Shown here one piece after another: positions 2,803-49,594 of a DNA stretch of 64,000 bases. The first letter of the stretch is position 1. Each line of letters opens with the position of its first letter. The notes beneath the pieces are model-generated. The model had not been told where the DNA came from. It saw nothing but the letters and a program-made list of their open reading frames with translations, and made no database searches. Made by a program: the position numbers and the translations under genes. Source of the stretch: Fervidicoccaceae archaeon (GTDB taxonomy: Archaea; Thermoproteota; Thermoprotei_A; Sulfolobales; Fervidicoccaceae); assembly GCA_038734945.1 (NCBI GenBank), contig JAVYOA010000009.1:124001-188000 (forward strand), written 5' to 3'.

Positions 2803-2833
2803 AAGCTAAAAATTTCCAACGAGATTCTATATC

Positions 2834-26166: not shown

Positions 26167-26277
26167 ACTTTTTCATTATCACTGAAACTTATAATCTTAT
26201 ACGCCCATTGATCTCTTGTTAACATTTTAGAACTTTCTACTTTGGAACACCTATTTTCAGCATTTCTGCATTTTTAC

Positions 26278-26318
26278 CAAACTGAAAGCCTCGTCCTTTA
26301 GGGCAAGGAGGAGGTCAG
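26278..26318 (+). mobile_element. Solo IS200/IS605 end hairpin (copy A, 41 bp)
   Basis: TTTAC|caaact GAAAGCCTCGTCCTTTAGGGCAAGGAGGAGGTCAG; homologous to copies at 42501 and 49554. Confidence 0.75.
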
Positions 26319-26331
26319 ATGGAGCATTTGC

Positions 26332-27069
26332 TTAGCTGATTTTATCCATTGGTATGAGAATCTTTTTGTCATCTACATATAGGGTCTTGAAAACCACTCT
26401 GTAAAGCTCCTGCAATAAGTTTTCATTCAAAATTTCATCGATTCTCATTGGTCCCAGAACAGCTTTCTTTCCCATCAAAATTCCATAATCACAAATAAGA
26501 GAAGCATCCCAGATATCGTGAAGGCTCAATACGATGAGCTTCCTAGCTTTCTCCTCTCTGAGAATCCTGTAGAGAGAGAACCTAGCTCCTATGTCAAGAT
26601 GGCCATTAGGCTCATCGAGGAAGAGGTATGGAGCATCTGAAGCTATGGATGATGCTAGCAGAATCTTCATTTTCTCACCAGTGCTAAACTGCTCAAACTC
26701 TCTCTCTAGATCCACATCTGATTCCAGTTCTCTGAGCAGGTTGGAAACCCTATCCAGAATTTCCCGCTTCCATTCTCCGTACAGCAGTCTCCTCTCATTA
26801 GCAGCTAGAAGAGAGAGAGCAGCATCTCCTCCACGCATTCCTGGAATGCTCGGAGGATCTGGAGGAACATATAGAGACTTTGCAGGGGGGTCTTTTTCTA
26901 CTGACCCAGAAAGGAGGGGGAGCGATCCTGATAGAGACTTCAAAATTGTGGTTTTTCCTGAGCCATTTGGTCCAAGAACACAGTAGATTCTACCACCCTT
27001 CAGCTGCATTTCCAAGTTTCTATAGATGGGAAAAGAATAGCCAATGCTTCCTTTCAGAGAAATCAGCAT
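26332..27069 (-). CDS. ABC ATPase (FecE/BtuD-like)
   Basis: GPNGSGKTT, FSTGEK, FLDEPN, SLHD. Confidence 0.85.
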   Translation of the reverse strand: MLISLKGSIGYSFPIYRNLEMQLKGGRIYCVLGPNGSGKTTILKSLSGSLPLLSGSVEKDPPAKSLYVPPDPPSIPGMRGGDAALSLLAANERRLLYGEWKREILDRVSNLLRELESDVDLEREFEQFSTGEKMKILLASSIASDAPYLFLDEPNGHLDIGARFSLYRILREEKARKLIVLSLHDIWDASLICDYGILMGKKAVLGPMRIDEILNENLLQELYRVVFKTLYVDDKKILIPMDKIS

Positions 27070-27077
27070 TTTTCAGA

Positions 27078-28082
27078 TCACCCTCTCATGCTCCTTACGA
27101 GGAGGAATAGGAAAAAAGGAGCTCCTAAAATGCTCATTGCAATCCCAACTGGAAGTTCCGAGGGCATGAAGGCAATTCTCGATGCTACATCAGCAGATAT
27201 GAGGAGGAGGGGTCCCAGCAAAAATGATAGAGTTGAAACAGCTCCTGGGTCCCCACCAACAATTATCCTCGAAACATGTGGGATTATTAGTCCAACAAAT
27301 CCAATCGGTCCAACAGCAAGAGTAACCAATGAAATGCTTATGCTGGAGACAACAATGCTCTCTTTCCTCACATTCCTCACGTTTATGCCAGAGGAGAGAG
27401 CAAGATCTTCTCCTATCATCAACTTTCTAAGGGCGCCGACTCTCAAATAGATATACGAAGCTATTATGACAAGGCTAACCAGGCTCAAAAGGACAGTTTT
27501 TTCATCGGAAAATTGAAGCGAACCGAGAACGAAGGCAATCCCACCTCTAGAAAGAGCCGGTTCCATGAGGAGTATTATATATGAAATCGAAGTCATCATG
27601 GTTGAGATCATTACTCCGGAGAGGGCTATGATGAGAATTCTGAACCCTCCTAGCTTGCTGATCCCATAGATGAGTCCGGCAGCAAACAATGAGAAGATAA
27701 AGGAGAGAGCAGGAGCTACATACATCCCAATTTCCATTGATACTATGTAGCCCAAAAGGGTTCCAAGCATTGCTCCAGATGAAATTCCAAGTATACTTGA
27801 GTCCACCAGCGGATTAACAAGTATAGTCTGCAGGATCAGACCATTGAGGGAGAGCACTGAAGCGGATAGAAAAGCCGTTATTGTTCTGTATATTCTAAGC
27901 TCAAAAATAGGATCAGTAGTTTTCCATCTACTTATTGGGAGAATTCCCGAAGATCCTACTAATATGCTCATGAATAAAACTGGGATCAGAAGGAAGAATG
28001 AAATTGCCAAAAAAATAAACAGCCTTCTTTTCTTATCCCTCAAATACTCAAAAAGGGATTTCTCCAATTGGTATACCCTCAC
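27078..28082 (-). CDS. FecCD/BtuC family permease
   Basis: NPLVDSSILGISSGA, GPIGFVGLIIPH, ELPVG, GAPFF. Confidence 0.9.
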   Translation of the reverse strand: MRVYQLEKSLFEYLRDKKRRLFIFLAISFFLLIPVLFMSILVGSSGILPISRWKTTDPIFELRIYRTITAFLSASVLSLNGLILQTILVNPLVDSSILGISSGAMLGTLLGYIVSMEIGMYVAPALSFIFSLFAAGLIYGISKLGGFRILIIALSGVMISTMMTSISYIILLMEPALSRGGIAFVLGSLQFSDEKTVLLSLVSLVIIASYIYLRVGALRKLMIGEDLALSSGINVRNVRKESIVVSSISISLVTLAVGPIGFVGLIIPHVSRIIVGGDPGAVSTLSFLLGPLLLISADVASRIAFMPSELPVGIAMSILGAPFFLFLLVRSMRG

Positions 28083-29284
28083 TTTGCCGAAGTCATATTG
28101 ATGACCATTTCAAGCGTTAAATCGTTAGGTACTGCAGTGACGTTGTATAAATCGGGATGGAGAATTAGAGATAGTGCTAGTTGAAGCTCAGCAATTCTGG
28201 GACCTGGCCTTGAGGCAATGTCATTAAGCTCTCCATGAAGCATATAAACTTTGCCATCCTTTACAGCTTTGATGCTTTCTCCCCCAGGCTGAGTTCTGGC
28301 CCAGCTCAGAAATTGGGAAGCATTGGAGAAGCCGCCAGCATATTCGGAGAGAACAATGACATCTGGATTTGCTTTGATGACCTCCTCCCAAGAAATCATG
28401 GGCCAGGCTTGCGATATATTTTCCAGAGCATTTCTTCCACCAGAAAGTCCTATAATGTCATTCCAAAAACTTCCTCCTCCAGCAGCAAAGATTGGATTGA
28501 TCCAAACAACATACATGATACTTGGCCTAGTAGTAGTTTTCGATGCAACTAAACTATATTGTCCCAAAATTCTCTGTTTCAATTCATTCACGAGATTGAG
28601 AGCATCTTGGAAGTGGTTGGTTATCTTGCCCAAAAGAAGTGTTGCTGAGAATATGTCATCAATGCTCTCTGTCCTGAGGGAAATTGAAGTGATGCCCATC
28701 TGAGATAGCTGATATATGAATTTATACTGGACTCCCGTGGTTCCTATGACTAAATCTGGCTTTAAGGAAATGACTTTTTCCAAACTTATGTCTGAGAATC
28801 CTCCTACCCTCTCTATTGTTCCATTCTTCACCAGATCACCTATAATTGGAGGATAGTTCGAGTAATCATCAACTCCAACAATATATGAACTAGCATTGAT
28901 TGCGAAGAGAATTTCCGTTATGCTTGGTGCTATTGAGACAATTCTTTGTGGTTGTTGTGTTATGAAAACTGTTCTGTTCAAAGCATCATAGACTTGAATT
29001 GGATATTTTAAGCTAGATACCTCGCTTGATAGTTGATCAATTTTCTGGGTGAGGCTCAGGTTCAGGCTCTGAATAGTAGAGCTCAAGCTCTGTATTGCTG
29101 ATACGGAATTGCTTGCCGATGAGAGCTGGGAGGATATATTGAAAAGCTGCTTTTCAAACGAGTCCAAGGCATTTCTTATGGAATTGCTTGAGGCATAAGA
29201 CTCGTAAGCAAGAAATACAGAGATTCCAGAGAGCAAGAGAGCCAGTATGAGTATGGAAACAATAATCTTGTTTTGCGTGTTCAA
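28079..29284 (-). CDS. Helical-backbone substrate-binding protein (BtuF/FhuD-like) with Ser-rich coiled-coil spacer
   Basis: PQRIVSIAPSITEILFA, VGVDDYSNYP, RPGPR. Confidence 0.85.
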   Translation of the reverse strand: MNTQNKIIVSILILALLLSGISVFLAYESYASSNSIRNALDSFEKQLFNISSQLSSASNSVSAIQSLSSTIQSLNLSLTQKIDQLSSEVSSLKYPIQVYDALNRTVFITQQPQRIVSIAPSITEILFAINASSYIVGVDDYSNYPPIIGDLVKNGTIERVGGFSDISLEKVISLKPDLVIGTTGVQYKFIYQLSQMGITSISLRTESIDDIFSATLLLGKITNHFQDALNLVNELKQRILGQYSLVASKTTTRPSIMYVVWINPIFAAGGGSFWNDIIGLSGGRNALENISQAWPMISWEEVIKANPDVIVLSEYAGGFSNASQFLSWARTQPGGESIKAVKDGKVYMLHGELNDIASRPGPRIAELQLALSLILHPDLYNVTAVPNDLTLEMVINMTSAK

Positions 29285-29408
29285 GCTTGATCCCTGGTTT
29301 CAATAACCATATACATATATTTAAATTTTTTTCCAAATACAAGAAAACCACAAGAATTTAGCCATCTTCAATTAAAACCTGGAAAAATTCCAGCAGTTAG
29401 CCTTTCTG

Positions 29409-30185
29409 TTAAACAGAAGGTGCTACAAAAGCCTTTCCATCTGTCCTTATCATTTTAACATGAATCCCGTAAACTTTCTCCAGAAGATCTTCGTTCAGCA
29501 TATCCTTTGGAGATCCATTGGCAACGATCTCCCCCATTGACATAACGATAGCTCTATCGGCAATTTCAATTGCCTCATTTGGATCATGTGTAGTGAAAAG
29601 TATTCCTTTACCTTCCGATGCTAATTCTTTCATCATCTTGAGAACAACAAGCTTGTTTCTGAAGTCCAAATATGCTGTTGGTTCATCGAGAACTATGAAT
29701 GGAGTTCCCTGTGCATAGGCTCTCGCAATACTGATCATCCTCCTTTCCCCTCCACTCAGCTGAGAGAAGTATCTATTTGATAGTCTCTCAAGACCAAACC
29801 TAGAGATAGCTTCCTCAGCAATTTCCTCATCTTCTCTTGAAGGCAGTTTAAGCGGGGAAACATGCGGCATTCTCCCCAGCAAGACATAGTCCTTTACCCT
29901 GAGGGGGACATTTCTCATTATTTCCTGTGGAACCCATGCTATCATCTTAGCTCTCTCTCTATCGCTGATCTCAAACACATTCTTTCCATTTATGAATACC
30001 CTGGGGGGAGAAGGTCTAATCACACCAAGCGCTATTTTTGTCAATGTTGTTTTCCCGGAGCCGTTCGGCCCCAAAAGGGCTAAAACCTCCCCTCCCCTCA
30101 AGGATAAGCTCACATTTCTAAGAGAGAAGCCCGTTTCCAAATATGTATAGCTAACATCGTTGATTTTCAGCTCAGCTCCAGCCAT
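29409..30185 (-). CDS. ABC ATPase (FecE-like)
   Basis: GPNGSGKTT, VPQE, LSGGE, LDEPTAYLD, THDPN. Confidence 0.9.
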   Translation of the reverse strand: MAGAELKINDVSYTYLETGFSLRNVSLSLRGGEVLALLGPNGSGKTTLTKIALGVIRPSPPRVFINGKNVFEISDRERAKMIAWVPQEIMRNVPLRVKDYVLLGRMPHVSPLKLPSREDEEIAEEAISRFGLERLSNRYFSQLSGGERRMISIARAYAQGTPFIVLDEPTAYLDFRNKLVVLKMMKELASEGKGILFTTHDPNEAIEIADRAIVMSMGEIVANGSPKDMLNEDLLEKVYGIHVKMIRTDGKAFVAPSV

Positions 30186-31191
30186 GATATATCCTCCTCT
30201 TGAGAAGATAGGCAAAGAAAGGAACCCCTACGAATGATGTGAGCACCTCAAGCGGGAGCTCACTAGGCAGTACAGCTCTCGATATTGTGTCAACTATAAG
30301 AAGGAAAGCGGATCCTATAACAGCGGATCCGGGTATTGTGAACTTGTTTGATTCTCCGAAAAGCATTCTCGATATATGTGGGATTACTAGACCTATCCAT
30401 CCAATTAGTCCGGCAACAACGGTGCTTGCTGCAGCGGGAAGCGTTGAAAGGACAATTATGATTGCCTTGTAAACTTCAACTCTTATTCCAAGAGCCTTTG
30501 CCTCCTCCTCTCCTACAACAAATGCGTCAAGCCTCCATCTCAGGAAATAGAGAAGAATGATTGATGGAACGGAAATAACTGTCAGAATCTCAACATCTCT
30601 CCAAGTCACAGAAGCCAAACCTCCCATGAGCCAATACGTTATTTGAGGAAGCTTAGACTCTGGATCAGCAACGAATTTTACTAGGCTTATAAGGCTCTTG
30701 AAAAGGCTCCCCACAATGATTCCCGAGAGAACCAGATCAACTATTCTCGTCCCTCCCCCTCTCCATGCTATTAAATATGAGGACCCAAGAGCAACAAGGC
30801 CTATGCCAAAAGCTATTGCCTGAACCAATGGTAGGGGAAAATCGAGAAGTATTCCAATTGAAGCTCCAAAGCCAGCTCCGGCCAATACACCCAAAATATC
30901 AGGGCTTACAAGCGGATTTCTGAAGAGTGCTTGAAATCCTGCTCCTGAAACAGATAGAGAGGCTCCAATCAGCAATGCGGCTAAAATTCTGGGTAGCCTT
31001 ATTTGAATGACAACGTTGTAGAGAGGACTCTGATTTGCCCCTCCGCCCAAGATTGAGCTTACAAGCACTCTCATGGACTGTACGGGAGCGAAGCCATAGC
31101 TTCCCATTCCAAGTGAAACTAGGAAAATAAAAAACAAAATTGCTGCAGCAATGGCAATTTTCTTGTTACCACCTAGCACTATTATATCCAC
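30172..31191 (-). CDS. FecCD family permease
   Basis: IRLPRI, FRNPLVSPDILG, YWLMGG, IGWIGLVIPH. Confidence 0.92.
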   Translation of the reverse strand: MDIIVLGGNKKIAIAAAILFFIFLVSLGMGSYGFAPVQSMRVLVSSILGGGANQSPLYNVVIQIRLPRILAALLIGASLSVSGAGFQALFRNPLVSPDILGVLAGAGFGASIGILLDFPLPLVQAIAFGIGLVALGSSYLIAWRGGGTRIVDLVLSGIIVGSLFKSLISLVKFVADPESKLPQITYWLMGGLASVTWRDVEILTVISVPSIILLYFLRWRLDAFVVGEEEAKALGIRVEVYKAIIIVLSTLPAAASTVVAGLIGWIGLVIPHISRMLFGESNKFTIPGSAVIGSAFLLIVDTISRAVLPSELPLEVLTSFVGVPFFAYLLKRRIYHGWS

Positions 31192-31204
31192 CTAACGCAG
31201 AATC

Positions 31205-32218
31205 CTATTTAATCTGAGAGATCTCGGTGGCATTCAGTCCATATATATTCGTATATAATTGCATTCTTAGCTCAGTTATATTCAGTCCAGCGGTCTCCTC
31301 CGGATGTATTATTTTTGCCAAGTAAGCAAGGAGAAGGACAAATCTAGGACTGGTTGGAGTGTACTCTCTGGGTACTTTGAAGACCATTCCGTTTTTCACA
31401 GCATTTACGCTTTGCAGCCTCGGATCATTCAAAATATCGCTCGCATTTTGAGATACTCTATAGCTTAGCACTATTATGTCTGGATTCATTTTAACCACAT
31501 CTTCATAATTTATGAATATGGTGCTCGTGTTGCTTGAGAGACCCTCACTCAAGCTGATCCCTCCTGCATAGCTTATGAGCTGATTTTCTATTCCCTGCGT
31601 AACTACTTGAATTCCATTTGTACCTATGCTTCTTATGAAGAGGACTCTTGGATGGGTTGTGGATTTTGATACCATTGACGATATGTTCATTACTGTGCTG
31701 TTGAGATAGGAGATAACATAATTCGCTCTTTGCTCCCTATTGAGAGCCTTCCCGATAATAGCTATAGTATTGTAGAGATCTTGTATGCTGTTTGTCCAGG
31801 GAACTCCGATAACTGTTAGATTGTGAGCTTCGTAGCTTTGGAGCTCCTGCTGACTTCTTATATATGTAATTATGAGATCTGGAGAGAGAGAAATTAGCTT
31901 TTCAAGATCCACGCCGTTTGTGTAGGTTAGCGGTGTGGCGTTTAGGATACTCGGTGGAAAGTTCATTGTATCAAGCCTACCCACAATCAATGATCCTGCT
32001 CCCAGGGAGTAGACGATCTCAGCTGACCCTTGATCTAGTACAACTAATCTAGTAACATTCAGCGGAACAGTAACATTCCTTCCCAAACCATCGGTCACAA
32101 CCACATACTTGCTCTGCTGAGATCCGCTTTGACTTGGATTATGCTGCATTAGCATGTATCCAGCAAATGCAGCAACTATAATTATAAGTACTATCCCTGC
32201 AGCCAGAGAACTTTTCAA
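31205..32218 (-). CDS. Helical-backbone substrate-binding protein (iron chelate/cobalamin family)
   Basis: TDGLGRNVTVP, EKLISLSPDL, AVKNGMV. Confidence 0.85.
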   Translation of the reverse strand: MKSSLAAGIVLIIIVAAFAGYMLMQHNPSQSGSQQSKYVVVTDGLGRNVTVPLNVTRLVVLDQGSAEIVYSLGAGSLIVGRLDTMNFPPSILNATPLTYTNGVDLEKLISLSPDLIITYIRSQQELQSYEAHNLTVIGVPWTNSIQDLYNTIAIIGKALNREQRANYVISYLNSTVMNISSMVSKSTTHPRVLFIRSIGTNGIQVVTQGIENQLISYAGGISLSEGLSSNTSTIFINYEDVVKMNPDIIVLSYRVSQNASDILNDPRLQSVNAVKNGMVFKVPREYTPTSPRFVLLLAYLAKIIHPEETAGLNITELRMQLYTNIYGLNATEISQIK

Positions 32219-32404
32219 TCAAATCACCAAATTGTGATATTAGATAGCATAATAAAAATTTTTTGTCCAGAATCTATTCCCATTCTTTTTCCCACAATTT
32301 ACAAAAATTATCACAATTTATCATTTAAAGTAAAAAATAAAAGAGTTGTTAGAGATAGCGTGAAAAGAAGCTGAAAATTTCATTTTCCGCTTGAGGGGAT
32401 TGGG

Positions 32405-34705
32405 TTGGTCTCTGCTGCAGTTTTGGGAGCTATAGGAGGAGGGCTTGGCTTTGCCTCAGCTATCTTTGTATACCTGGTTTTAACGAAGCAGGAAATGGGC
32501 AATGAGAGAATGATTGAGATTTGGAAAGCAATTAGAGAGGGTTCTTCTGCTTACATGAGGAGGCAAACCAAAACCATTCTACTATTCTCAGTATTCATAT
32601 CCGCAGTAGTTTTCCTAGCAGTTTACCTCGGATACAGGGCTAAGCTGCTTTCAGCATACCCGCAGCTGGAAGGCGAAGTTCTAAAGGAATCTGCTCTAGT
32701 GGGATTCTCGGTCTTTTTAGGCTCACTTTCCTCCATAATAGCGGCATTCTTCAGTATGGATGCCTCTACGAAAGCCAACGTGAGGACTGCAGCGGCAGCT
32801 ATCAAAAGCCCTCTGAATGCTTTAAAAATTTCTGTTCTTGGCGGATCCATTCTCGGTCTCTCTGTTCCTTCTCTCTCTCTTCTCGCAATATCTGCTTTGT
32901 ATATAGCATATTCGGCACTCTTCAATGCCTCCATCTATAACCCCCTATCAATTAGGTTTGTCCTCGATAGTCTTGTTGGATTTGCATTTGGTGCCAGCCT
33001 CTCAGCCCTTTTCGCACAGCTTGGAGGAGGCATCTATACTAAGGCCGCTGATATAGGGGCAGATATAGTGGGGAAAATAGAAGCCTCCATCCCAGAAGAC
33101 GATCCTAGAAATCCTGCTGTAATAGCTGACCAAGTTGGAGATAATGTAGGAGATTGTGCAGGAAGAGGAGCAGACATATTTGAAAGCGTCACAGCTGAAA
33201 CAATAGGAGCCATGATGATCGGGTGGGTGATTTTCTTCATCTTGACTAGTGCCGGGGTGAGCTACGAATACGCGTCAAGATTCATGTTTCTTCCACTTCT
33301 GATATCCCTTGTTGGAATAGTATCTACCCTTCCGGGACTACTTACAATAATTCTCCATCGAAAGTACAGGGAACCTATAGAGCCTCTGAGAAATGGAGTG
33401 ATCGTTTCATCGATAGTCGCGCTGATTCTTTTACCAATTCTCTACAAATATATTCTCCCGGATCTTTGGTTGAACCTATACATAGCCTCTATTGTAGGGA
33501 TAGCAACAGGAATAGTGATGGTTCTAGTAACCAATTATTATACTGGACTGAGGTCTAAGTCTGTTATAGAGATCGCAGAAAGCAGTCAAAGCGGTCCTGC
33601 ATTGACTTTTCTTTCAGGACTTAGCGTAGGCATGAGATCTACATTAATTCCCATCATAACCATATCCATTGCTATACTATCTTCCTTCTTCGCGCTATAT
33701 TCATCATCACTTCCCTTAGCACTCCAGGTGAGCATAGGAGGAGTAAACTTATCAAAGTTCATATATGGCATATACGGTAGTGCCATAGCAACAATGGGCA
33801 TGATCACTCTCGCTGGGATAATAATGACCTTGGATGGTTCAGGCCCTATAGCTGACAATGCTGGAGGAATAGCTGAGATGAGCGGGATGGAGGAAAGAGT
33901 TAGAAAAAGTCTTGAGCCTCTCGATGCTCTAGGGAATGTAACTAAAGCCCTCACTAAAGGCTATGCTATGGGCAGCGCAGCTTTAGCAGCACTTTTACTA
34001 TTCCAGGCTTTTGTACAGGACTATGTCGCTAGAGATCCCTCAGTTCTCACACAACTTCCAGCATTCTCTTCTTTGACCTTGAACATATCTGGCTTTGCTG
34101 AGGCACTGAAGAACTTCTTGGGAGGTCTTGTGATAACTAAGCCTGTAATACTGATATCAATCCTCATAGGCGCAATGCTGCCATACTTCTTCACATCAAT
34201 GGGTCTGAAAGCTGTTACGAGAGCAGCCTATATGATGGTCGAGGAAGTCAGAAGGCAGTTCAGAGAGAGACCAGGGATACTTGAAGGAAAAGAGAAACCA
34301 GACTATTACAGGGCAGTAGATATCAGCACTCAATATGCCATAAGGAACATGATTGCCCCTTCTCTCTCCATAATAATCACTCCTCTTATTCTCGGTACTC
34401 TCTTTGGAGGACAGGCTGTTGGTGCACTAGTTGTGGGAGCAACGGCTAGTTCAGTTGTGCTAGGAATAATGATGATGTGGGGTGGGGCTGCCTGGGACAA
34501 CGCAAAGAAGTATGTCGAGGAGGGTAACCTTGGAGGAAAGGGCTCTCCAGTTCATGCGGCCACAGTGGTTGGAGATACTGTCGGAGATCCTCTCAAAGAT
34601 ACCGTTGGACCCTCTCTGCATATATTGATAAAGTTGCTTAACACAATATCGCTGGTGTTCATTCCTCTCTACATGCTATACTTAATGCAGTCGATTTTTC
34701 CATAA
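32405..34705 (+). CDS. hppA: Membrane proton-pumping pyrophosphatase, probably K+-independent
   Basis: GGGIYTKAADIGADIVGKIE, DQVGDNVGD, GPIADNAGG, GDTVGDPLKD; GNVTKA (Lys variant). Confidence 0.93.
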   Translation: MVSAAVLGAIGGGLGFASAIFVYLVLTKQEMGNERMIEIWKAIREGSSAYMRRQTKTILLFSVFISAVVFLAVYLGYRAKLLSAYPQLEGEVLKESALVGFSVFLGSLSSIIAAFFSMDASTKANVRTAAAAIKSPLNALKISVLGGSILGLSVPSLSLLAISALYIAYSALFNASIYNPLSIRFVLDSLVGFAFGASLSALFAQLGGGIYTKAADIGADIVGKIEASIPEDDPRNPAVIADQVGDNVGDCAGRGADIFESVTAETIGAMMIGWVIFFILTSAGVSYEYASRFMFLPLLISLVGIVSTLPGLLTIILHRKYREPIEPLRNGVIVSSIVALILLPILYKYILPDLWLNLYIASIVGIATGIVMVLVTNYYTGLRSKSVIEIAESSQSGPALTFLSGLSVGMRSTLIPIITISIAILSSFFALYSSSLPLALQVSIGGVNLSKFIYGIYGSAIATMGMITLAGIIMTLDGSGPIADNAGGIAEMSGMEERVRKSLEPLDALGNVTKALTKGYAMGSAALAALLLFQAFVQDYVARDPSVLTQLPAFSSLTLNISGFAEALKNFLGGLVITKPVILISILIGAMLPYFFTSMGLKAVTRAAYMMVEEVRRQFRERPGILEGKEKPDYYRAVDISTQYAIRNMIAPSLSIIITPLILGTLFGGQAVGALVVGATASSVVLGIMMMWGGAAWDNAKKYVEEGNLGGKGSPVHAATVVGDTVGDPLKDTVGPSLHILIKLLNTISLVFIPLYMLYLMQSIFP

Positions 34706-34756
34706 AACCAAGAAATTTTTTAATATAAAACTCACTTCAAGGAATTTAGATGGGAA

Positions 34757-35413: not shown

Positions 35414-35543
35414 AATACTAAATGAAACAAACTCGCTCGGAGGAGTGACTTGATCCTTTACAGAAACAAGAGAAATTAATCCAAGGGAAGCGGAAAGGAA
35501 GGAAGCAGTTTTTTCCATTCTGGTAAACCTTCTAATTTTTGCC

Positions 35544-36406: not shown

Positions 36407-36455
36407 AACCTTTAAAATGATTACATAGAATATAAACACTGCTGGGTGAATAAAG

Positions 36456-40742: not shown

Positions 40743-40801
40743 TTACCAGACATTTTTTCTCTGCTTATCCTTAAATTAATTAAGTTAAGACAAGGGGGAT
40801 T

Positions 40802-41575
40802 CTAAGCGGTCTCTTCGTTCTTCTCCACAACCAACATTTTTGCTACTTCTGGCAGGATCTCCCCAGCCTTCCTTCTAACTACTAACTCAGCTTTCCCATC
40901 AATGGGTGTAGGGGAATCGTTTATGACCACTGCTTTTGCTCCAGTGCGAATTGCTTCTTGCGGTATCAAAGCTGCAGGATAGACAGCTAGACTTGTGCCT
41001 ATGATAATTAACAATGAGGAGCTTCTAGCCATAGATAAAGCGTCCAATAGTTCTTTTTCTGGAAGGGGTTCCCCAAAGTAAACAACAGCTGGCTTTAGTA
41101 TCGAACTACATCTAGGACATCTGGGAGCTTTCTCACTCTTTTTCACCTCTTCCACAAACTTCTTCAAATCTCCTCTGAAGCTGCATCTCAAGCATTGGAC
41201 CTCATCAAATCTACCGTGTAGCTCTATCACATTTCTACTCCCAGCCTTCTGATGAAGCCTATCGATATTTTGCGTGATAACTCCTTTAACTAAACCCCCA
41301 GCTTCCAACTTTGCTGCAGCATAATGAGCAGAGTTTGGAGAAGCTCTAGAAATTGGCACATAAACTTCCTCTAGATACTTTTTCCAGGAAAAATCAGGAT
41401 CTTCCTGGAAGAACTCAATGCTAAAGATCTCTGGAGAAATCCTTTTCCAAAGACCCTTTGGACCTCGGAAATCTGGGATCCCACTCTCTGTGCTTATTCC
41501 CGCTCCTGTAAAGAGGACAACATTTCCTCTCGAACTAGCAATAAGCTCAGCAACTTTCACGATTTCGCTTGACAA
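40802..41575 (-). CDS. cobB: Sir2-family NAD-dependent deacylase
   Basis: TGAGISTESGIPDFRG, ITQNID, ELHG, CxxC..CxxC, GTSLAVYPA; start placed at the TTG after a G-rich RBS. Confidence 0.92.
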   Translation of the reverse strand: MSSEIVKVAELIASSRGNVVLFTGAGISTESGIPDFRGPKGLWKRISPEIFSIEFFQEDPDFSWKKYLEEVYVPISRASPNSAHYAAAKLEAGGLVKGVITQNIDRLHQKAGSRNVIELHGRFDEVQCLRCSFRGDLKKFVEEVKKSEKAPRCPRCSSILKPAVVYFGEPLPEKELLDALSMARSSSLLIIIGTSLAVYPAALIPQEAIRTGAKAVVINDSPTPIDGKAELVVRRKAGEILPEVAKMLVVEKNEETA

Positions 41576-41650
41576 GGAACAAAATCCCCCAATTTCTTTT
41601 TTTAAGAAAACCAATGTATTAAATACATCAACGAATACAGTCATGTAGGG

Positions 41651-42442
41651 ATGGAAATGAGGGCTACGGCAACTTTGAATGAGATAAGGCTCAGCCGATT
41701 AAAGGCTGGAGAATCCGACATTCTCATAGTATACAGCGTAGAATCTAAAGAGTTCACGGCAACTGCTATAGAAAGGAATGGAATGGTTGATCTCGATCTG
41801 GAGTGCCCATGCTCACAGAAAAAAGAAGAATTGATCAATCACCTCTCAGAAGCTGCTATCGAGGTAGGCAGAATAAGCATTAAGGCAGGATACAATGGAG
41901 GAGAGGAGTGTCTCTCTTGCACGGTGGCAGCAATCTTGACTTCAGCTTATGCTCTAGCTAAAACCATTAATGTCATGGAAGACATCGAAGCTTCACAGGA
42001 AATGAGGGCTATTCTGGCTTCATCCCTTCTCGGAGGAATCAATATCTATTCCTTTGGGAGCAGAACACCTGCTCTTCTCAGGTATTTCTATCCATCCGAG
42101 TTCATCAAAGCAATTACCATCCAATCTCAGCAATATAGGAAAAATATGGTAGTTTCAAGGGATACAATCTTCAGTATAATTGAGGGCCTCTCCTTAATAT
42201 ATGCAGGAGAAAATGAGCAGGGCACAAAGATTCTCTTGAAGGCATCTAATTCGTTCTATTCTGGTTCAGAGCTACCCATAATTCCCCTAACAACTGGGGA
42301 TATAATTCTGCTACCCTCATCAACATCTTGCAGTTCATTCCTAATGAGTCTTGGGAGCAAGATTGCGGATTATCTTAAAGACAGAGGAAATATGGCGAGA
42401 ATTTCCAGGTTGGGAAGAGGAGCAACTGTTTTGATAGATTAA
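41651..42442 (+). CDS. Hypothetical protein, possibly a degenerate homoserine-kinase (GHMP) homolog
   Basis: RATAT start, ASSLLGGINI, C-terminal GRGATVL resemble ThrB; the GxGLGSSAA loop is absent. Confidence 0.4.
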   Translation: MEMRATATLNEIRLSRLKAGESDILIVYSVESKEFTATAIERNGMVDLDLECPCSQKKEELINHLSEAAIEVGRISIKAGYNGGEECLSCTVAAILTSAYALAKTINVMEDIEASQEMRAILASSLLGGINIYSFGSRTPALLRYFYPSEFIKAITIQSQQYRKNMVVSRDTIFSIIEGLSLIYAGENEQGTKILLKASNSFYSGSELPIIPLTTGDIILLPSSTSCSSFLMSLGSKIADYLKDRGNMARISRLGRGATVLID

Positions 42443-42500
42443 AGCACAATGTACAAATCACACTGCTCTGAGTTATAGCTTAAACAGTCTTAGGATTTAC

Positions 42501-42542
42501 CTCACCTGAAAGCCTCTTCCTTTAGAGCTAGGAGGAGGTCAG
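42501..42542 (+). mobile_element. Solo IS200/IS605 end hairpin (copy B, 42 bp, decayed)
   Basis: TTTAC|ctcacct GAAAGCCTCTTCCTTTAGAGCTAGGAGGAGGTCAG; supplies the polB2 stop codon. Confidence 0.7.
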
Positions 42543-44168
42543 GAAAGATAACTGCGGGCAAAGCCTCCTAGGATGATTGTTTGAGAGAAGGATGCTTATA
42601 ACTTTCTGCTCAATTCCTGGATGCACTTCTACCCCTTCTAGTTCTGGGCATCTAACACCCTTTATAACTAGTCTTCCCTCGTCAGTTATTCCGTAGTATC
42701 TATTCGGCGCACCGCTATGTGCAATATTATTAGTTCTTGGAATAACTAAGTATTTGTACAGGGCTTCAATTTTTAACTTCATACCAGTCTCAGCTTCTAT
42801 TTTCTTTCTCAGCATCTGAGCTTCCTGATAGTCTATTCTATCTCCGGATTTCCAGAGAAAGAGGCTATCTACAATGAAGTGTATCACTTTATAGCCCATT
42901 TCCGATGCTACACTCATGGCCATTCTCATTATCTCTCTGGAGATTGAAACAACACTCTCATATGCAAGGACGCTCCCAAACCTCGCATTGCGATAGCCCA
43001 GATACCCAAAGCTTGCGACCATTATCCACTTCAATGCCTTTTCTCTTTCAGAATCTATCCATTTTCCGGTTGCTTTCAGCAATTCCCTTCTCTCGACAAG
43101 CTTACTGAGCACCTGAGAAACAATGCCAACTCTATCTAGGCATACGCTGTGAAGCGAACCAAGGGGAATTGTCTTCTTGGAGCATCCTGGTCTCTCCACA
43201 GTTTCCGGAGATATGTTAAATTTCGCTATAATTGCTGGATATAAGCTTGAGAAATCCAGCTGAAGAGCATTTCTGTACAGGCCAGGCCTTGGCAGTCCCA
43301 CGAGCCCACCATTATCAGCTCTCAGTATTTCCTCAACACTTCTCCACCCTCCTACTCCCGATCTCACTTTTGGAATCAGCATCTTTCTTTGAAAAGCCTC
43401 CAAGGCCTCTATTTCGGTGAGTATCTGACCTATGCTTCTTCTCGCAGTATCTCTCAGGTTTGTAAAGGATATTCTCGATAGCTCAATTAGTCCTATGATA
43501 CTATCAACAGGATTTCTCCTTTCTTCGATGCATATAGGAGATCCAAGGCTTCTGCAATCTAAGCTTTTACTCTCAATAAGTGATATATGATGTTCCCTTC
43601 CAATGCTGGCTACATCCTCATTAAGGAGGCTTTTCCTGTTCATATTGATTCTTCTTTCAACAATTTCTCCTTCCTTCCTCAGCACTGAAGAGAAGAGCAC
43701 AATTTTCTCGCCAGTTTCCTTCACACGTAGAATTCTGAGCGACGGAATATCTAGCACTAGATCCCATGGATCTTTCCCTTCCCACTGAAGTAATGGTATG
43801 CCCTTTCTCATTAGCACCAGTGACTTTGCAGATGGCTGCACGTTTACTCTCTCTATCCCAAGATCTTCCAGCCTTTCGATAAGCTTTAAAAAGCTCTGAT
43901 AGCAGTCAACTTCAACTCTGACAACTTCTCCCGAGACTTCATACCAAGGAGGTAAAAACCACTCCTCTATAGCAACTTCTCTAACAAATGGAATCCTTTT
44001 AAGAGAATTCGCAACTTCTTCGCTTTTAAATCGATGCGGTATTAGGTAGAAGGGATAGCTGCTATTGATCTCTCTTTCGAGCAACTCACCTTCATTTGTA
44101 AGCTGAAGCAGTCTTATTTTTCCTCTCAAAAACTCAGCCTTTAGGTTCCATTTTTCCCCCAATTTCAT
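42528..44168 (-). CDS. polB2: Family B DNA polymerase, PolB2 (Dpo2) type
   Basis: LDFSSLYPAII, NISPET, KWIMVASFGYLG, altered motif C IVDSLF; no recognisable exonuclease motifs. Confidence 0.88.
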   Translation of the reverse strand: MKLGEKWNLKAEFLRGKIRLLQLTNEGELLEREINSSYPFYLIPHRFKSEEVANSLKRIPFVREVAIEEWFLPPWYEVSGEVVRVEVDCYQSFLKLIERLEDLGIERVNVQPSAKSLVLMRKGIPLLQWEGKDPWDLVLDIPSLRILRVKETGEKIVLFSSVLRKEGEIVERRINMNRKSLLNEDVASIGREHHISLIESKSLDCRSLGSPICIEERRNPVDSIIGLIELSRISFTNLRDTARRSIGQILTEIEALEAFQRKMLIPKVRSGVGGWRSVEEILRADNGGLVGLPRPGLYRNALQLDFSSLYPAIIAKFNISPETVERPGCSKKTIPLGSLHSVCLDRVGIVSQVLSKLVERRELLKATGKWIDSEREKALKWIMVASFGYLGYRNARFGSVLAYESVVSISREIMRMAMSVASEMGYKVIHFIVDSLFLWKSGDRIDYQEAQMLRKKIEAETGMKLKIEALYKYLVIPRTNNIAHSGAPNRYYGITDEGRLVIKGVRCPELEGVEVHPGIEQKVISILLSNNHPRRLCPQLSFLTSS

Positions 44169-44388
44169 CTATCCTCTTCAAGGCTCTTATCAATCCAGCT
44201 AACAGCACGGCATATTCTTTGTCATATGGAGGCACAGCCTTGAAAATAGGAGCAAGATCTATGTATCCATCGAGGATCTCCTCAAACGCCTTCTTTACTT
44301 CAGGGTCATGAGCATACTCCATCATTTTCTTCAATCTCTCTATTTCAACTTCTAGAGCCATTCTAGCAGAAGGTATTGTCCTTCCCAT
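44134..44388 (-). CDS. Small PolB2-associated protein (arCOG07300-like)
   Basis: MGRTIPSAR start; sits between the RadA-like gene and polB2. Confidence 0.75.
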   Translation of the reverse strand: MGRTIPSARMALEVEIERLKKMMEYAHDPEVKKAFEEILDGYIDLAPIFKAVPPYDKEYAVLLAGLIRALKRIDEIGGKMEPKG

Positions 44389-45056
44389 TCTCTCCTTACC
44401 TCGTTAAGCTCTCTTATAGCTCCTAGAGCTGAGGACTCTGGCCTAGAGGGGTGCTTAATTAAGATTGCTCTATAGCTTCTGCTCCCTCTTCTCTCAATCT
44501 TGACTAGTATGCTAGCTGAATGATGATGCATCTTTCCTCCTTCAGGAAGATACCTTCCAAATTTCGTTATTCGATTGAAGAGAACTATTCTCTTTCCTTT
44601 AGCTATAGCTTCTCTGAACGATGCTGTAAGGGGAGTCAGCTTCCAATATTCCCTAGGATATTTGGGAGAGTGGACATAGGGATCTATTATGACAATTGTG
44701 CCAAGTTTCAGCGATATAGCTTCTCTTATCATGCCTATGGCGTCTTCGAGCCTGAAGGCTCTCGAGATCAGGAGGCCATCTTCTGAGCATCCAAGCGCTC
44801 TAAGCATCATTCTCAACATATAGATATCATAGTTCATCGCTCTTTCCTGCACTATGCCTAGTGCAGCTCCACCGTTGCAATGAAAGTTTGCTGTTGCTAT
44901 ATAGGATGCCCGAAGGACTAGATCCAGTTCCTCCCCATAAATTTCAGCAATCGCTCCAGTTGGTATGCAACCTATGATCTGATCTATTGTAGGGATCCCC
45001 GTCTCAATGCAGCTATTTCTGGAGAGCTTATCGCATGTACTCATGTTCCTTTCCAA
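44352..45056 (-). CDS. Inactivated RadA/RecA-like protein of the PolB2 operon
   Basis: IETGIPTIDQIIG, AEIYG followed by a degenerate Walker A, SRAF, GGKMHHH, LIKHP. Confidence 0.75.
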   Translation of the reverse strand: MERNMSTCDKLSRNSCIETGIPTIDQIIGCIPTGAIAEIYGEELDLVLRASYIATANFHCNGGAALGIVQERAMNYDIYMLRMMLRALGCSEDGLLISRAFRLEDAIGMIREAISLKLGTIVIIDPYVHSPKYPREYWKLTPLTASFREAIAKGKRIVLFNRITKFGRYLPEGGKMHHHSASILVKIERRGSRSYRAILIKHPSRPESSALGAIRELNEVRREWEGQYLLLEWL

Positions 45057-45315
45057 GCCCCAGGAGCTTTAACTCGATATTTTCTTTCAGAATTTCTTGG
45101 TAGAAAAGCATAAATGAACGAACTGTAGAGAGAGGGAGGTGATCGAAAGTATTTAACAAAAGGAAGCTTGGCCTCCTTTCCTTTTCCTGCTAAAAAACGA
45201 ACCTTTCCCTTTGTCAGTTCATTCATATGTATTTTGCATTTCCGGTGCAAAAAAAAAGCAGGGACCTCTTGCTATGAATACATATAAGGAGCAAGCCCTC
45301 ATGCGAGGTAACTTT

Positions 45316-45990
45316 TTATTTAATGCTCTCTGTTAGGCCCTTGCTGAGAACTCTCAAGGATTCAACAATTTCATGTACTACTCCATGTTCAGCTCTGGAG
45401 ACAATTTCAACAGCATTAATTTGCTTATATGCTGAAATCTTGCGAATAGGGGCATAACTAGAATTAATTATTCCTGCTAGCAGTTCAACATCTGCAGCGC
45501 TCTCATAGAATAATTCAAATTTTCCTTGTTTTGTTTGAATGGAAGTTGTGTTCAGCCTATCCATTCGACTACCCAGATCTCTAGAGAGAGTTCTCAGCAA
45601 TCTGCTCTCGCTCTTTTTCACAGCATGAGCATCTCTCAAAATCTTTTTACCTGCCAATTCAATCATTATTGTTACCCTATCTTCATGCTTTAAGACTTTA
45701 GCTATTGGATAGTAGAAAAGGGAGTGCTTTGGAGTTGTAGTTAGTAGGACAAATGCCCTCCTTCCATCACCTAGCTTATATTTTGCTCTATATCCAACCA
45801 AATATCCTAGAAGCATATACTCTTTATCCTTTGGTCTGAACTCCCTTTCAAGTTCATCTGTGAAATCCTTCATGAACTTTAGAATTTTCTTCCTCATTTT
45901 AAAATACCAAAAAACGGAAGCAACTGAAATTATCATGAGAGCAGATAATCCAATAACCTCAAGTAAGAAAACAATTTCCAAGCTTATCAT
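45316..45990 (-). CDS. Hypothetical membrane-anchored protein in the cstA/ArsA cluster
   Basis: N-terminal TM helix; overlaps the ArsA-family stop codon. Confidence 0.65.
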   Translation of the reverse strand: MISLEIVFLLEVIGLSALMIISVASVFWYFKMRKKILKFMKDFTDELEREFRPKDKEYMLLGYLVGYRAKYKLGDGRRAFVLLTTTPKHSLFYYPIAKVLKHEDRVTIMIELAGKKILRDAHAVKKSESRLLRTLSRDLGSRMDRLNTTSIQTKQGKFELFYESAADVELLAGIINSSYAPIRKISAYKQINAVEIVSRAEHGVVHEIVESLRVLSKGLTESIK

Positions 45991-46946
45991 CCTCTTATAA
46001 CGATAAATGAGTCTTTCAGCTTCACAATATCTTCAAGCTTTGATGGATGTATCCCCAAATGGGGGATCATTATCGATTTAATGGGAATTGAGCTAAATTC
46101 TTCAATTATGTTGTTTTGCTCTTCAATCGTTCCAAGCTTTTCAGCTATGTCCTTCGGGAGCACTCTGTTCATTACTAGCAGCTTTGGCTGAACACTCAGC
46201 TCACTTTCCAGGAAATTCAAGATCTCCCTCAACTCGAACATTGGAAGCGATTCCGGATTTGTGACTACAACATAGGAGGTCCTAGAAGGATTGCTCAAAG
46301 CCTCCCTTACCTCTCGATACGTTTCTTTCATTTCATATAGTTTCTCAAGAGCTGGATCGTTAAGCTTTACTTCTCTACCAAGCGTCTTGGATATCACATA
46401 TCTCAAGGAAACTATTCTCTCTCTTATTTCAATTAATTTATCTAACCAGATCAAATACAACTTTGGAAGGGCGAGAGTTCTCAGCGAGATTCCAGTGGGT
46501 GGCGTATCAATGACTATATACTTGAATTCCATCTTTTTATACATCTCTGATAGTTGTCTCAGAAAAACTTCTTCCTCGACTCCAGGAGCGTGTTTCATCA
46601 CTTTGACTATATCCTCTATGTTTAATACTGAGAGGGAAGGGAAGAGTTCTGCCAAAAGGTCTGAATATTTTGAGGTCAGTTCCTTGGCAGAAGCCTCGAT
46701 GTCTAGCTGAGATGCAAATAAATTCTTAAAGACCTGAACAGCTTCCATTGTTTTCTGCAAATTGAGGTACTTCAATATATGCTTTGCCGGATCGAAGCTC
46801 ACAATCAGTGTTTTTCCATAGCTGCTAAGCTCATAAGCAATCATAATCGATACAGAAGTCTTTCCTACTCCTCCTTTACCAAGAACAACAACAACGTGGG
46901 GTTCTCCCTCGAGTGGACTCAGCAATTCAGCTATTTTACTCACCAT
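45987..46946 (-). CDS. ArsA/GET3 family ATPase
   Basis: GKGGVGKTS, SFDPAKH, PGVEE, IDTPPTG, VMNR. Confidence 0.88.
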   Translation of the reverse strand: MVSKIAELLSPLEGEPHVVVVLGKGGVGKTSVSIMIAYELSSYGKTLIVSFDPAKHILKYLNLQKTMEAVQVFKNLFASQLDIEASAKELTSKYSDLLAELFPSLSVLNIEDIVKVMKHAPGVEEEVFLRQLSEMYKKMEFKYIVIDTPPTGISLRTLALPKLYLIWLDKLIEIRERIVSLRYVISKTLGREVKLNDPALEKLYEMKETYREVREALSNPSRTSYVVVTNPESLPMFELREILNFLESELSVQPKLLVMNRVLPKDIAEKLGTIEEQNNIIEEFSSIPIKSIMIPHLGIHPSKLEDIVKLKDSFIVIRG

Positions 46947-47242
46947 TCACCACCGAGGGAGGACATGAGATCTCCTAAAACATCATCCCCTCTCACAGCT
47001 CTGGACTCAAGAACCTTTATTTCATCCTTGAGGGCTTCCAGAAGCTCCATGCTTAGAATGGGAGAGACTGTTTTTACCCCAACCAATGGACCCAGGACAA
47101 TTGTCACGAAAGTTGCTAGCATTTCACTATACTCTAATTGCAAAGCACTCACGCTATCCTCGAGAACAGCTCTGTTCATTCCCTTCATGAAGAGAACAAG
47201 TTCCCTCAACAATTGCTTCATTGATTTAATCAACTTTGGCAC
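46940..47242 (-). CDS. Small protein of the CstA-ArsA cluster
   Basis: GTG start at 47242; helical with one hydrophobic segment; conserved position between cstA and an ArsA-family ATPase (from recall). Confidence 0.6.
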   Translation of the reverse strand: MPKLIKSMKQLLRELVLFMKGMNRAVLEDSVSALQLEYSEMLATFVTIVLGPLVGVKTVSPILSMELLEALKDEIKVLESRAVRGDDVLGDLMSSLGGEW

Positions 47243-48303
47243 CAGAGAGTCTCCAAGTTTGTTAATATATATTAAAAAAATTAGCTTTTTGCCCTCCTTA
47301 ATCCGTTTATGAAGAGGGCTATTAACAATATGTCCAGAATGACAGAGATTATCACTATTGTTCCTGCTCCAGCTTGATATAATGCTGGCAATCCAGGTAG
47401 CACTGCTAAGAGCCACCAGATTAGAGCAGTTGTCACTGTAACCCACAGGAACAGAGCTGGGATTATCAAAAGCAGCGATGTTTTCCCCTCACCTTCAATA
47501 TGGCATATGCCCATAGAGACGTTGTGAGAAGAGCAATGGCAGCTAGGAGCTGATTTGTCCCCGAAAATGCCGGCCATATTATATTATAGGCATAGACCGT
47601 CATAGTTCTTGTGGTTCCTGGTATGGTGACAACCATTTTAGGATATGCTAGGATTGCTCCTATTATGACAGGTAGAGCTGATGCAAACCATCTATTTGTT
47701 ATTATCTTGTGAGCTTTCTGGTTTCTTGGCTTGAGCCAATCAAAGAATTCCACCCATGCAAATCTGGCCAGCCTGTCTGCAGCATCCAGGGTTGTCATAA
47801 CGAAACCCGTTAGAGCCCAAGCGGCGAACGTTTTGAAGCCCAGGAAAGTTGAAGCAAAAACACCTGACCCAAAAATTCTCGACCAGGCTGTTGCTTGTTC
47901 CAACCCGTAACCCACTAAGAATCTGTCAATGGCTCCAAGAGAAGTTATTATTGGAGTAGCAGTTGTGTTTATTCCAATACTCTGGAGAGTGCTTTCTACG
48001 GGAAGCCCAGTCATTGAGCCAAGCTGAGCGAAATTCCATGCTAGAGCTATGGGCGTAATTACAGCCAATGAAGATACTGCTCCCTCAGTTAGCATTCCTC
48101 CATATCCAACAAGGAGTGCATCCAGCTCGTTGGAGAGCTGCTTGGATGTTGTACCAGAGCCAACTACTGAGTGGAAACCAGATAGGGCACCACATGCGAT
48201 GACAAGAGGGACGGTTGGCCAGAAATATGCAATTAGGGCGCTTCCGGTTGGAGTACCGGGAATTGCACCTATTACTGTACCTGGGCTGTTTTCTTTTTGA
48301 TAT

Positions 48304-48519
48304 TCATTTGGGTTGTTTATGCGCTTTGTAGCTGTTCATGATTTCCGTCTTGAATGTATTGAGGTACGCTGATGCTGTGTGCCTGTCCAAGCCACGCTTC
48401 TTCATCACGACGCTGTGCATGGGTGAGCTTGTGATTCCTCGGGGATCGACTAGAACTGGTTTTAACCCGTACTTCAGGCTCATGACTACCGTGTGATTTA
48501 GTAGTACTCCTCGGGCAAA
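48304..48519 (-). pseudogene. tnpB: C-terminal remnant of a TnpB-related protein
   Basis: FARGVLL..VMSLKYG..VLVDPRGITSS..H..VMKKRGLDRHTASAY resembles the C-terminus of crenarchaeal IS607-associated TnpB-like proteins (recognised from memory). Confidence 0.7.
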
Positions 48520-48579
48520 CCACCACCATTGTAAACTACTGCAGAAAAGCTTAAAATTTTTACGTAAATAATAGTATTG

Positions 48580-48785
48580 AAGTAAGGATGAACTCGATGA
48601 GCATGGCGAGGAGGACACCTCGTGCACTCTGCTTCGCTGCAGGGAGCTGGGTGAACCGCGGGCAACTGCTGGAGACAAGCTCCCGTAGGCGGGGCTGGGG
48701 AAGAACAAGCCGTTGAGAGGTGGACGGCTGAGAGGCTTAACATAAAAGAGCATAGAAGCCAATGAACAACCATCCACCAAGAAAC
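48580..48785 (+). ncRNA. Putative structured RNA inside the IS element
   Basis: Hairpin 48606-48623; 17-bp stem 48631-48648/48678-48695 enclosing a GCAA tetraloop hairpin (48658-48669); hairpin 48708-48729; several G-U pairs favour the + strand; TATA-like tract at 48550-48556. Confidence 0.6.
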
Positions 48786-49553
48786 GGCAGCAAATCCAGT
48801 ATATACAGGTCCTGTTAGAAGTAGGTCAGGTATTATCAAGGCTGCGAGGATAGCTAGCCCAGCAAATACCCACAGCAAATATGCATTCAGATAGTCTCTT
48901 GGTTGTAACAGATACCAGACTGGAAGAGCAGCTGCCAGCATGGAATATAGCGTAAGAACAACTATCCATGCCTCATATGTTAGATAGAGTGGTGTTCTCA
49001 TTGAATAGAAGAATGCTATGACGAGAATAATCAAAGCTATACCTGTTGCTAGCTTAACGCTCAGCCCTGTTCTGTAGACTAGAATTCCAAACAATAGAGC
49101 GAGCGGCATGAATATGATTGCTATTGTGGCTGCTGTAGGTGTGCTGACAAAAGTAGATGAGGCCACGCTCAAAAAGGCAGCAAGGACGAGCACGAGAGCA
49201 AACCAAACATAGGTTAGGAAAATATACTTGGCTTTTCTCCCCATAATGTTTTCACTCACGCTCATCACAGATAATCCGCCATGCCTAACGCTTGCCATGA
49301 TTGCCATATAGTCATGAACAGCTCCAATCAAGATGTTGCCTGCGAGAACCCATAGAAGCGGGAGACCCCAGCCCCATACCATTGCGATTGCTGGACCTGT
49401 AATGGGCCCTGCTCCTGCTATTGCTGCGAAGTGATGTCCATAGAGTACATACTTGTTCGCTGGAGCATAATCTATTCCATCGAATTTTTCATAGGCTGGT
49501 GTGAGCCTATCTGGGCTCGCCTTCACAACTCTTTTCTCAAGAATTTTTTTTAC

Positions 49554-49594
49554 AATCCCGAAAGCCTCGCCCCTTAGGGCGGGGAGGAGGTCAG
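49554..49594 (+). mobile_element. Solo IS200/IS605 end hairpin (copy C, 41 bp, most intact)
   Basis: TTTAC|aatccc GAAAGCCTCGCCCCTTAGGGCGGGGAGGAGGTCAG inside the 5' end of cstA. Confidence 0.8.

Follow-up and report, generated by a model that had tools for sequence, protein, structure and literature searches.

Single-hairpin sequences in a Fervidicoccaceae archaeon as probable terminal-only remnants of IS200/IS605 elements

The 64,000-nt stretch of DNA analysed here (the window) corresponds to positions 124001-188000 of contig C9 (JAVYOA010000009.1) in the 1.34-Mb, nine-contig genome of a Fervidicoccaceae archaeon (GCA_038734945.1; G000 below). It contains three copies of a short sequence, here called a solo hairpin or solo, that resembles the ends of IS200/IS605 insertion sequences; the closest named records with the same element are Desulfurococcaceae/Sulfolobales metagenome-assembled genomes (MAGs) and Thermogladius. 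The three copies lie on the + strand and follow a common plan: the tetranucleotide TTAC, a linker of 6-7 nt, GAAAG, a 20-nt hairpin, and the tail AGGAGGTCAG. By direct reading, TTAC belongs to the flank, outside the element; it is likewise found ahead of full-length left ends, where it is the target and left cleavage tetranucleotide. Copy 1 (41 nt, 26278-26318), preceded by TTAC at 26274-26277, has the linker CAAACT followed by GAAAG (guide AAAG at 26285-26288), the hairpin CCTCGTCC-TTTA-GGGCAAGG (26289-26308) and the tail (26309-26318), and is partly decayed. The most decayed of the three is copy 2 (42 nt, 42501-42542; TTAC at 42497-42500), with the linker CTCACCT, GAAAG at 42508-42512, the decayed hairpin CCTCTTCC-TTTA-GAGCTAGG (42513-42532) and the tail at 42533-42542. 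Copy 3 (41 nt, 49554-49594; TTAC at 49550-49553) contains the linker AATCCC, GAAAG at 49560-49564 (guide AAAG at 49561-49564), the intact hairpin CCTCGCCC-CTTA-GGGCGGGG (49565-49584) and the tail (49585-49594), which terminates in the right cleavage tetranucleotide TCAG (49591-49594).

The positions and the shared strand given by the original prediction were recovered for all three copies, each starting right after TTAC, and the graded decay that it described proved real when the copies were folded as single-stranded DNA: the canonical hairpin, with 8 bp and -8.2 kcal/mol, formed in copy 3, whereas copy 1 kept its stem only in part and in copy 2 that stem was gone (z -1.1; 28 of 200 shuffled sequences folded equally well). 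A 35-nt IUPAC pattern allowing up to three mismatches matched three sites in the window, exactly these copies, and none in 100 shuffles, and a repeat search grouped the copies as a single family (D1) with 81-83% identity over 48 nt. At Rfam gathering thresholds no family was assigned to any of the three solos, the sole match in the window being the archaeal RNase P RNA at 21119-21431. Copy 2 was spanned unchanged by contigs of three sequencing runs (X1, X4, and X5; records 4, 14, and 20); in addition, a 546-aa open reading frame (ORF) with a DNA_pol_B domain on the - strand (42528-44168) takes its final four codons (L T S S) and its TAG stop (42528-42542) from this copy.

Two full-length IS200/IS605 elements carrying both tnpA and tnpB are present in the same genome, at C2:417578-419400 and at C6:192 to about 2020, together with one tnpB fragment. 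The Y1 transposase domain (PF01797) was found in TnpA of both, with 132.9 bits in the C2 copy and 127.4 bits in the C6 copy (cut-off 23), and these two genes accounted for all PF01797 matches in G000. TnpB matched in both elements, and the C2 copy, on which its Pfam domains were checked, contained PF01385 (84.9 bits) and PF07282 (43.6 bits). Taken across genomes, the parent element is about 1.8 kb long, encodes TnpA and TnpB or TnpB alone, is inserted 3' of TTAC, and has a subterminal hairpin of about 20 nt at each end, the two being nearly identical in sequence and in direct orientation. With TnpA, TnpB, hairpins at both ends, a fixed tetranucleotide and no target duplication, the parents belong to the IS200/IS605 family. 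The right-end region of the C2 element (L009:266-407, - strand) matched the whole Rfam model HgcC (RF00062), from the 3' end of tnpB through the right end and 13 nt into the flank, with a score of 33.6 bits (E 3e-5) that is below the gathering threshold of 50; this match is consistent with the omega-RNA region of the element. Only the last stem and the tail of this omega-RNA-like region are kept in the solos.

The ends of full-length elements were parsed: 17 left ends (15 loci of other Desulfurococcaceae MAGs or genomes and the two of G000) and 20 right ends (18 loci of other genomes and the same two). All 17 left ends consisted of TTAC, a linker, AAAG, a hairpin and then AT(G/A). All 20 right ends consisted of a 4-nt guide, a hairpin, and AGGAGGTCA plus one variable nucleotide, one of them with AGGAAGTCAG instead. 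Right guides and right termini were paired as GAAC/TCAG in 17 loci and as GAAA/TCAT, GAGT/TCAG and AAAC/TCAG in one each, the last of these being the C2 element of G000; in the GAAA/TCAT locus both partners were altered together and the g4:c4 pair was retained. These arrangements can be read with the rules described for IS608, in which the left cleavage site TTAC goes with the left guide AAAG and the right cleavage site TCAA with the right guide GAAT, each guide consists of the four nucleotides on the 5' side of the hairpin foot, and the pairs A+16:T-3 and A+17:T-4 are formed (PMC3201880; PMC5934647). Applied to the archaeal family, the rule makes AAAG read TT-C and GAAC read TC-G.

In the solos, a left head (TTAC, linker, and AAAG) and a single hairpin are joined to the right tail, as seen in the 10 clear copies of G000 and the 17 clear copies of a complete related genome, G004 (see below). 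After the hairpin they have AG, versus AT in all 17 full-length left ends. On these comparisons the solos are true left/right chimeras of full-length ends. The original prediction had given the IS608 guide, target and right end in agreement with those two descriptions; the two halves that it had assigned to a left and a right end are equal to the full-length left head and to the right tail AGGAGGTCAG, and the GANC guide that it had expected for TCAG occurs as GAAC in 17 of the 20 full-length right ends and is absent from the solos. The solo sequence was not an ordinary terminus of any full-length element, and the original prediction withstood this check. Individual copies can be related to individual parents. 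The hairpin of copy 3, CCTCGCCCCTTAGGGCGGGG, matches exactly the hairpin at the left end of the C2 element, the two ends of which have in common an exact 12-nt run, TTAGGGCGGGGA; exchange or deletion across TTAGGGCGGGGA would yield copy 3, save for one linker base (AATCCC versus AATCTC). The linker CAAACT and the left arm CCTCGTCC of copy 1 are those of the left end of the C6 element.

The limits of the solos could be read from an occupied and an empty form of one site. In a MAG locus (L034), a reverse-orientation solo inside tnpB was a clean 39-nt insertion with respect to four of four paralogous tnpB genes; it lies between TCATTTGA(A) and GTAA, so that on its own strand the 39 nt come after TTAC and finish with TCAG, and the target is not duplicated. 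This is the short indel bounded by TTAC and TCAG that was expected from the proposed termini, and the solos are bounded exactly by the element's own ends. Metagenome contigs were then scanned with a 34-nt pattern made of the left head and the hairpin, which matched at least 123 stretches. Among the 80 loci analysed, the sequence ran on as a left end in 39, as a solo in 35 and otherwise in six. Sites were defined by clustering the 40 nt upstream of the pattern, and the 80 loci fell into 66 sites: 31 with left ends only, 27 with solos only, six others and two with both states, the latter being two of the 11 sites sampled in two or more contigs. In the first dimorphic site, the left flank of a solo (L116) was identical at 97/100 and 122/126 positions to those of two left ends (L136 and L160); in the second, solos L154 and L178 had left flanks identical at 146/148 and 21/22 positions to that of a left end (L126), and L126 and L154 come from contigs with the same sample prefix. 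At both sites the comparison took in the left flank and, on the long side, the initial 630 nt; these run into a TnpB-like frame and contain no tnpA, so that the long forms here are tnpB-only elements. The collapse between end hairpins put forward in the original prediction is supported by these two sites, dimorphic as judged by the left flank, and the solos may thus arise in place from long elements.

A census was made with an nhmmer profile derived from 11 seeds, taking hits at E <= 0.05. G000 gave 18 hits: 10 clear solos and two more recognized by eye, two full-length left ends, two full-length right ends, and ends of palindrome-associated transposable elements (PATEs). The complete genome G004 (1,319,206 bp) gave 37 hits, comprising 17 clear solos and about five by eye, four hits of right-end type and two or three PATE-like hits of left-end type. 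TTAC stood at the fixed distance in nine of the 10 clear G000 solos, the tenth having TTAA, and in 15 of the 17 clear G004 solos, the others having 1-nt variants. In G004, with its approximately 22 solos, neither a tblastn match to TnpA or TnpB nor a match to PF01797 was found; the solos have outlasted the transposase in this genome. Among 31 related genomes, where negatives are subject to MAG incompleteness except for G004, PF01797 occurred in three (one copy broken) and a 36-nt pattern of hairpin plus right tail, which matches solos as well as right ends of longer elements, in nine; part of the matches listed for three of them (G013, G021, and G023) had a right-end head of the GAAC type. Another genome, G006, contained at least 12 near-perfect solos, several with the loop variant TTCA. 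Eight of the 17 clear G004 solos had GAAAC instead of GAAAG, as did a PATE-like left end at 867663-867698. When ORFs were called with a crude model, all 22 G004 solos and 11 of the 12 G000 solos lay outside ORFs of 100 aa or more.

Orientation followed contigs in G000, with six of six solos on the - strand in C2, three of three on the - strand in C1 (including a tandem pair) and six of seven on the + strand in C9. In G004 the strands were interspersed (10 + and 12 -), with 12 runs by hand count against an expectation of about 11.9. GC skew and the local majority of gene strands defined no replichores, and the strand data of the two genomes neither back nor rule out the lagging-strand bias that had been offered as a cause of the common orientation. 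Also in G004 (L038-L103), no solo was present from about 316 kb to 789 kb (36% of the genome), the 22 lying elsewhere. The tandem pair in G000 (C1:84279-84364, - strand) has its second solo starting 3 nt past the TCAG of the first, as expected if the second insertion used the TTAC kept to the left of an earlier copy.

Longer non-coding relatives with two hairpins were observed as well. Three PATE-like elements of about 200-230 nt are present in G000, at C2:220503-220710 (-), C9:324480-324704 (+) and C2:307500-307700 (-) (loci L011-L013); each is composed of a left end and an omega-RNA-like right part terminating in TCAG, with left and right hairpins unlike each other. In other MAGs, tnpB genes contained extra insertions of about 282 nt (L034:1024-1307) and about 245 nt (L030), the latter size being taken from a lengthened tnpB match at 1501-3038. 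The L030 insertion has reverse-orientation hairpin ends and is a nested PATE-like insertion; no such ends were seen in the L034 segment when it was read.

Copy 3 lies inside the 5' end of a cstA-like gene (PF02554) on the - strand (47466-49631). By reading, excision of its 41 nt would leave an in-frame start of this gene, ATG...MKIKEAIGAVKKILEK. In run X1, a 408-nt minor contig (depth 5.8, versus about 20 for the main form) joins position 49550 to 49595; the letters in between were unread, the shorter side is only 30 letters long, and the contig afterwards departs from the sequence of the window, so that this contig gives only a hint of a candidate solo-free allele in a co-occurring strain. 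Loose contig ends at 49547-49594 correspond to other family copies in the community and are uninformative on this locus, and the parts of the stretch left uncovered in runs X5 and X6 are no evidence of absence. A degenerate cstA codon pattern for alleles of the copy 3 site matched no stretch in the metagenome contigs. In two genomes of the same genus (G001 and G002), nothing aligned across copy 3 and collinearity held only to the right of about 49760, which made the empty-site check uninformative. Copy 3 with its flank (48 of 48 nt) is identical to C2:236222-236269, an unrelated locus.

The neighbourhood of copy 3 showed further peculiarities. The cstA-like gene is disrupted twice, by copy 3 about nine codons past a candidate ATG and by a 501-nt segment (48285-48785), and lacks an N-terminal transmembrane stretch that is present in five orthologues from other genera. 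Precisely the 501-nt segment is missing from a contig of run X4 (record 15, depth 7.3), and without it the frame is open for 528 aa. The segment occurs once in G000 and not at all in G004, and contains a 158-aa ORF with no Pfam match; parts of it were very deep in runs X4 and X5. Synteny with loci of two same-genus genomes (L002 and L003) stops just to the right of copy 3 (49595-49785): collinearity, at about 68% identity, extends over a Na/Ca-exchanger gene and onward, with no alignment to the left, which suggests a rearrangement breakpoint beside copy 3.

Taken together, we consider it probable (roughly 0.7) that the three sequences are terminal-only remnants of an IS200/IS605 family of Desulfurococcaceae-like archaea, left by deletion of the element core. 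A deletion between the two end hairpins would take out the whole core and one hairpin copy, possibly by replication slippage, template switching or short-homology recombination or repair. The product would be TTAC followed by the left linker and left guide AAAG, one hairpin, and the right-end tail AGGAGGTCAG. Under the IS608 rule such a solo should not move, because the right guide (GAAC) is lost, AG instead of AT follows the hairpin, and one hairpin is left for a TnpA dimer that uses two; it would be a dead, slowly decaying footprint comparable to a solo long terminal repeat (LTR). Several observations count against this explanation. The exact run common to the two ends of 15 full-length loci was 12-21 nt in five and 4-10 nt in the other 10, and for many copies a simple repeat-mediated deletion may be inefficient with so short a run. 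The AATCCC linker of copy 3 and of its identical partner at C2:236222 occurred in no assembled full-length copy, the nearest being AATCTC. The minor X1 contig seems to lack copy 3, and recent gain of identical solos would also be expected of a mobile solo. GAAAC in eight of the 17 G004 solos might stem from another exchange point or from a self-copying solo subfamily, and the common loop variant TTCA in G006 speaks against immobility. The same-site claim for both dimorphic sites rests on one flank, the left. Finally, in the account of the 52-bp terminal-only elements of Haloquadratum walsbyi, the mobility of that form was left open (Dyall-Smith et al., 2011; PMC3119063).

Alternatively, the solo might be a working minimal transposon, that is, a 39-41-nt single-hairpin PATE cut after TTAC and after TCAG by TnpA acting in trans and pasted 3' of a new TTAC, with most copies derived from other solos. 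Identity over 48 nt between two copies at unrelated loci of a tnpA-bearing genome would be in keeping with this, as would the near-perfect solos of G006 with their shared loop variant and the candidate solo-free allele of copy 3 joining 49550 to 49595; the features of that joint described above count on the other side. The AAAC guide of the eight G004 copies would, under the IS608 rule, form two of the three pairs with TTAC and likewise with TCAG, and in Haloquadratum six strain-specific insertions were all of the 52-bp form, for which mobilisation was suggested as a possibility (PMC3119063). Against this stand the absence from the solos of the right guide GAAC that goes with TCAG in 17/20 full-length right ends, and the AG that replaces AT after the hairpin, the corresponding IS608 bases (A+42 and T+43, next to the left hairpin on its 3' side) forming triplets described as essential for a stable synaptic complex (PMC5934647). 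In addition, two hairpins are held in the IS608 transpososome (PMC3201880), the solos of G004 persist in a transposase-free genome, and at two sites, by their left flank, a long element and a solo are both found. We regard a family spread mainly by copying of solos as unlikely, and slightly less likely again that a solo can still be transposed by TnpA in trans, perhaps through a compromise guide such as AAAC. If solos were mobile, they would be the smallest known mobile DNA, and Y1 transposition would be able to run on one hairpin.

Two further explanations fared worse. The hairpins might have been adopted by the host as regulatory elements similar to repetitive extragenic palindromic (REP) sequences and kept by selection, acting for example in transcript ending, mRNA stability or as the Shine-Dalgarno-like GGAGGAGGT; the position of nearly all solos outside ORFs and the GGAGG within the tail agree with such a role, the former being expected as well for any insertion under purifying selection against gene disruption. 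Their orientation relative to neighbouring genes is mixed, however, and they decay freely, stems included, as in copy 2, in which the stem is lost. Moreover, no gene of the REP-associated tyrosine transposase (RAYT) type was seen, the PF01797 matches of G000 being the two IS-borne tnpA genes, and we consider host adoption highly improbable. A REP/RAYT system proper was rejected: no domesticated TnpA_REP gene was found, PF01797 being IS-borne only in G000 and missing in G004 despite its solos. Hardly credible is the view that the solos are ordinary right ends produced by 5' truncation and preceded by TTAC by coincidence. A solo and the right end of the C2 element do differ at only three of 35 positions, but none of the 20 full-length right ends has the TTAC, GAAC typically standing before their hairpin, and the solos have TTAC, linker and AAAG as left ends do, with the fixed-distance counts given above; this left-end head refuted the truncation.

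If the solos are remnants left by core deletion, they have practical consequences. Tools for IS annotation based on transposase genes miss such footprints, and the IS200/IS605 history of G004 would be invisible without its approximately 22 solos. Deletion of the core from hairpin to hairpin in two distant archaeal lineages would support a general route for shedding IS200/IS605/TnpB elements. Solos with the left guide and not the right one also offer natural substrates for defining the minimum requirements of TnpA.

Among known systems, IS608 of Helicobacter pylori resembles the archaeal family, as far as described in the sources cited above, in insertion 3' of TTAC, the AAAG left guide 5' of the hairpin foot, the AT past the left hairpin, a right cleavage site ending 10 nt 3' of the hairpin, and the same rule of guide-cleavage pairing; it differs in its right end (TCAA/GAAT versus TCAG/GAAC), in the distance of TTAC from the hairpin foot (19 nt versus 9-12 nt), and in its host, which is not archaeal. 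With solo LTRs the solos would share the loss of the body by recombination between terminal direct repeats, one repeat being left, and footprints that outnumber intact copies; in the archaeal family a 20-nt hairpin stands in place of an LTR hundreds of bp long, a left/right chimera is left in place of one intact terminal unit, and the element class is unrelated. REP sequences and bacterial interspersed mosaic elements (BIMEs) associated with RAYT (TnpA_REP) are likewise short, dispersed, mostly intergenic hairpins akin to IS200/IS605 ends; in contrast to them, no RAYT-type gene was found here, each solo has both IS termini, and the copies decay. Ordinary PATEs, as presented by Meers et al. (2023, preprint) and for a 271-nt PATE-like element of Halanaerobium (PMC7290912), are also non-coding, with IS605-type ends, no inverted terminal repeats and no target duplication. 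In those accounts they have both hairpins and usually an omega-RNA region, whereas each solo has one hairpin, with the omega-RNA scaffold reduced to its last stem; two palindromes are found elsewhere in G000, in the three PATE-like elements.

The closest parallel is provided by the terminal-only PATEs of the salt-loving archaeon Haloquadratum. According to Dyall-Smith et al. (2011; PMC3119063), a 22-bp direct repeat in the PATE HqIRS46 is made up of its near-terminal palindromes, and in four instances an element that is complete in one strain is reduced to 52 bp, in terminal-only form, in the other; a tnpB-only element, ISHwa23 (1500 bp), collapses likewise across a 19-bp repeat. Solos have what characterizes such terminal-only PATEs, namely a non-coding length, an IS605-related palindrome, no inverted terminal repeats and no target duplication. 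Common to both are an IS605-type origin, near-terminal palindromes acting as a direct repeat, the loss of the core and one repeat copy, a size of a few tens of bp with fused termini and one palindrome, and, probably, the occurrence of long and short states at the same site in different genomes, here judged by the left flank. Relative to that account, the solos differ in their hosts, which are hot-spring Desulfurococcaceae-like archaea of another phylum, in their length (39-42 nt versus 52 bp), in an unrelated hairpin sequence, in guide and cleavage logic that is readable in the solos (left guide kept, right guide lost), and in parents that include elements with both tnpA and tnpB. Our literature search found no description of this element family in Desulfurococcaceae or their relatives. 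The kind of element is thus known from the Haloquadratum cases cited; what is new with respect to them is the lineage, hot-spring archaea, and the shorter form.

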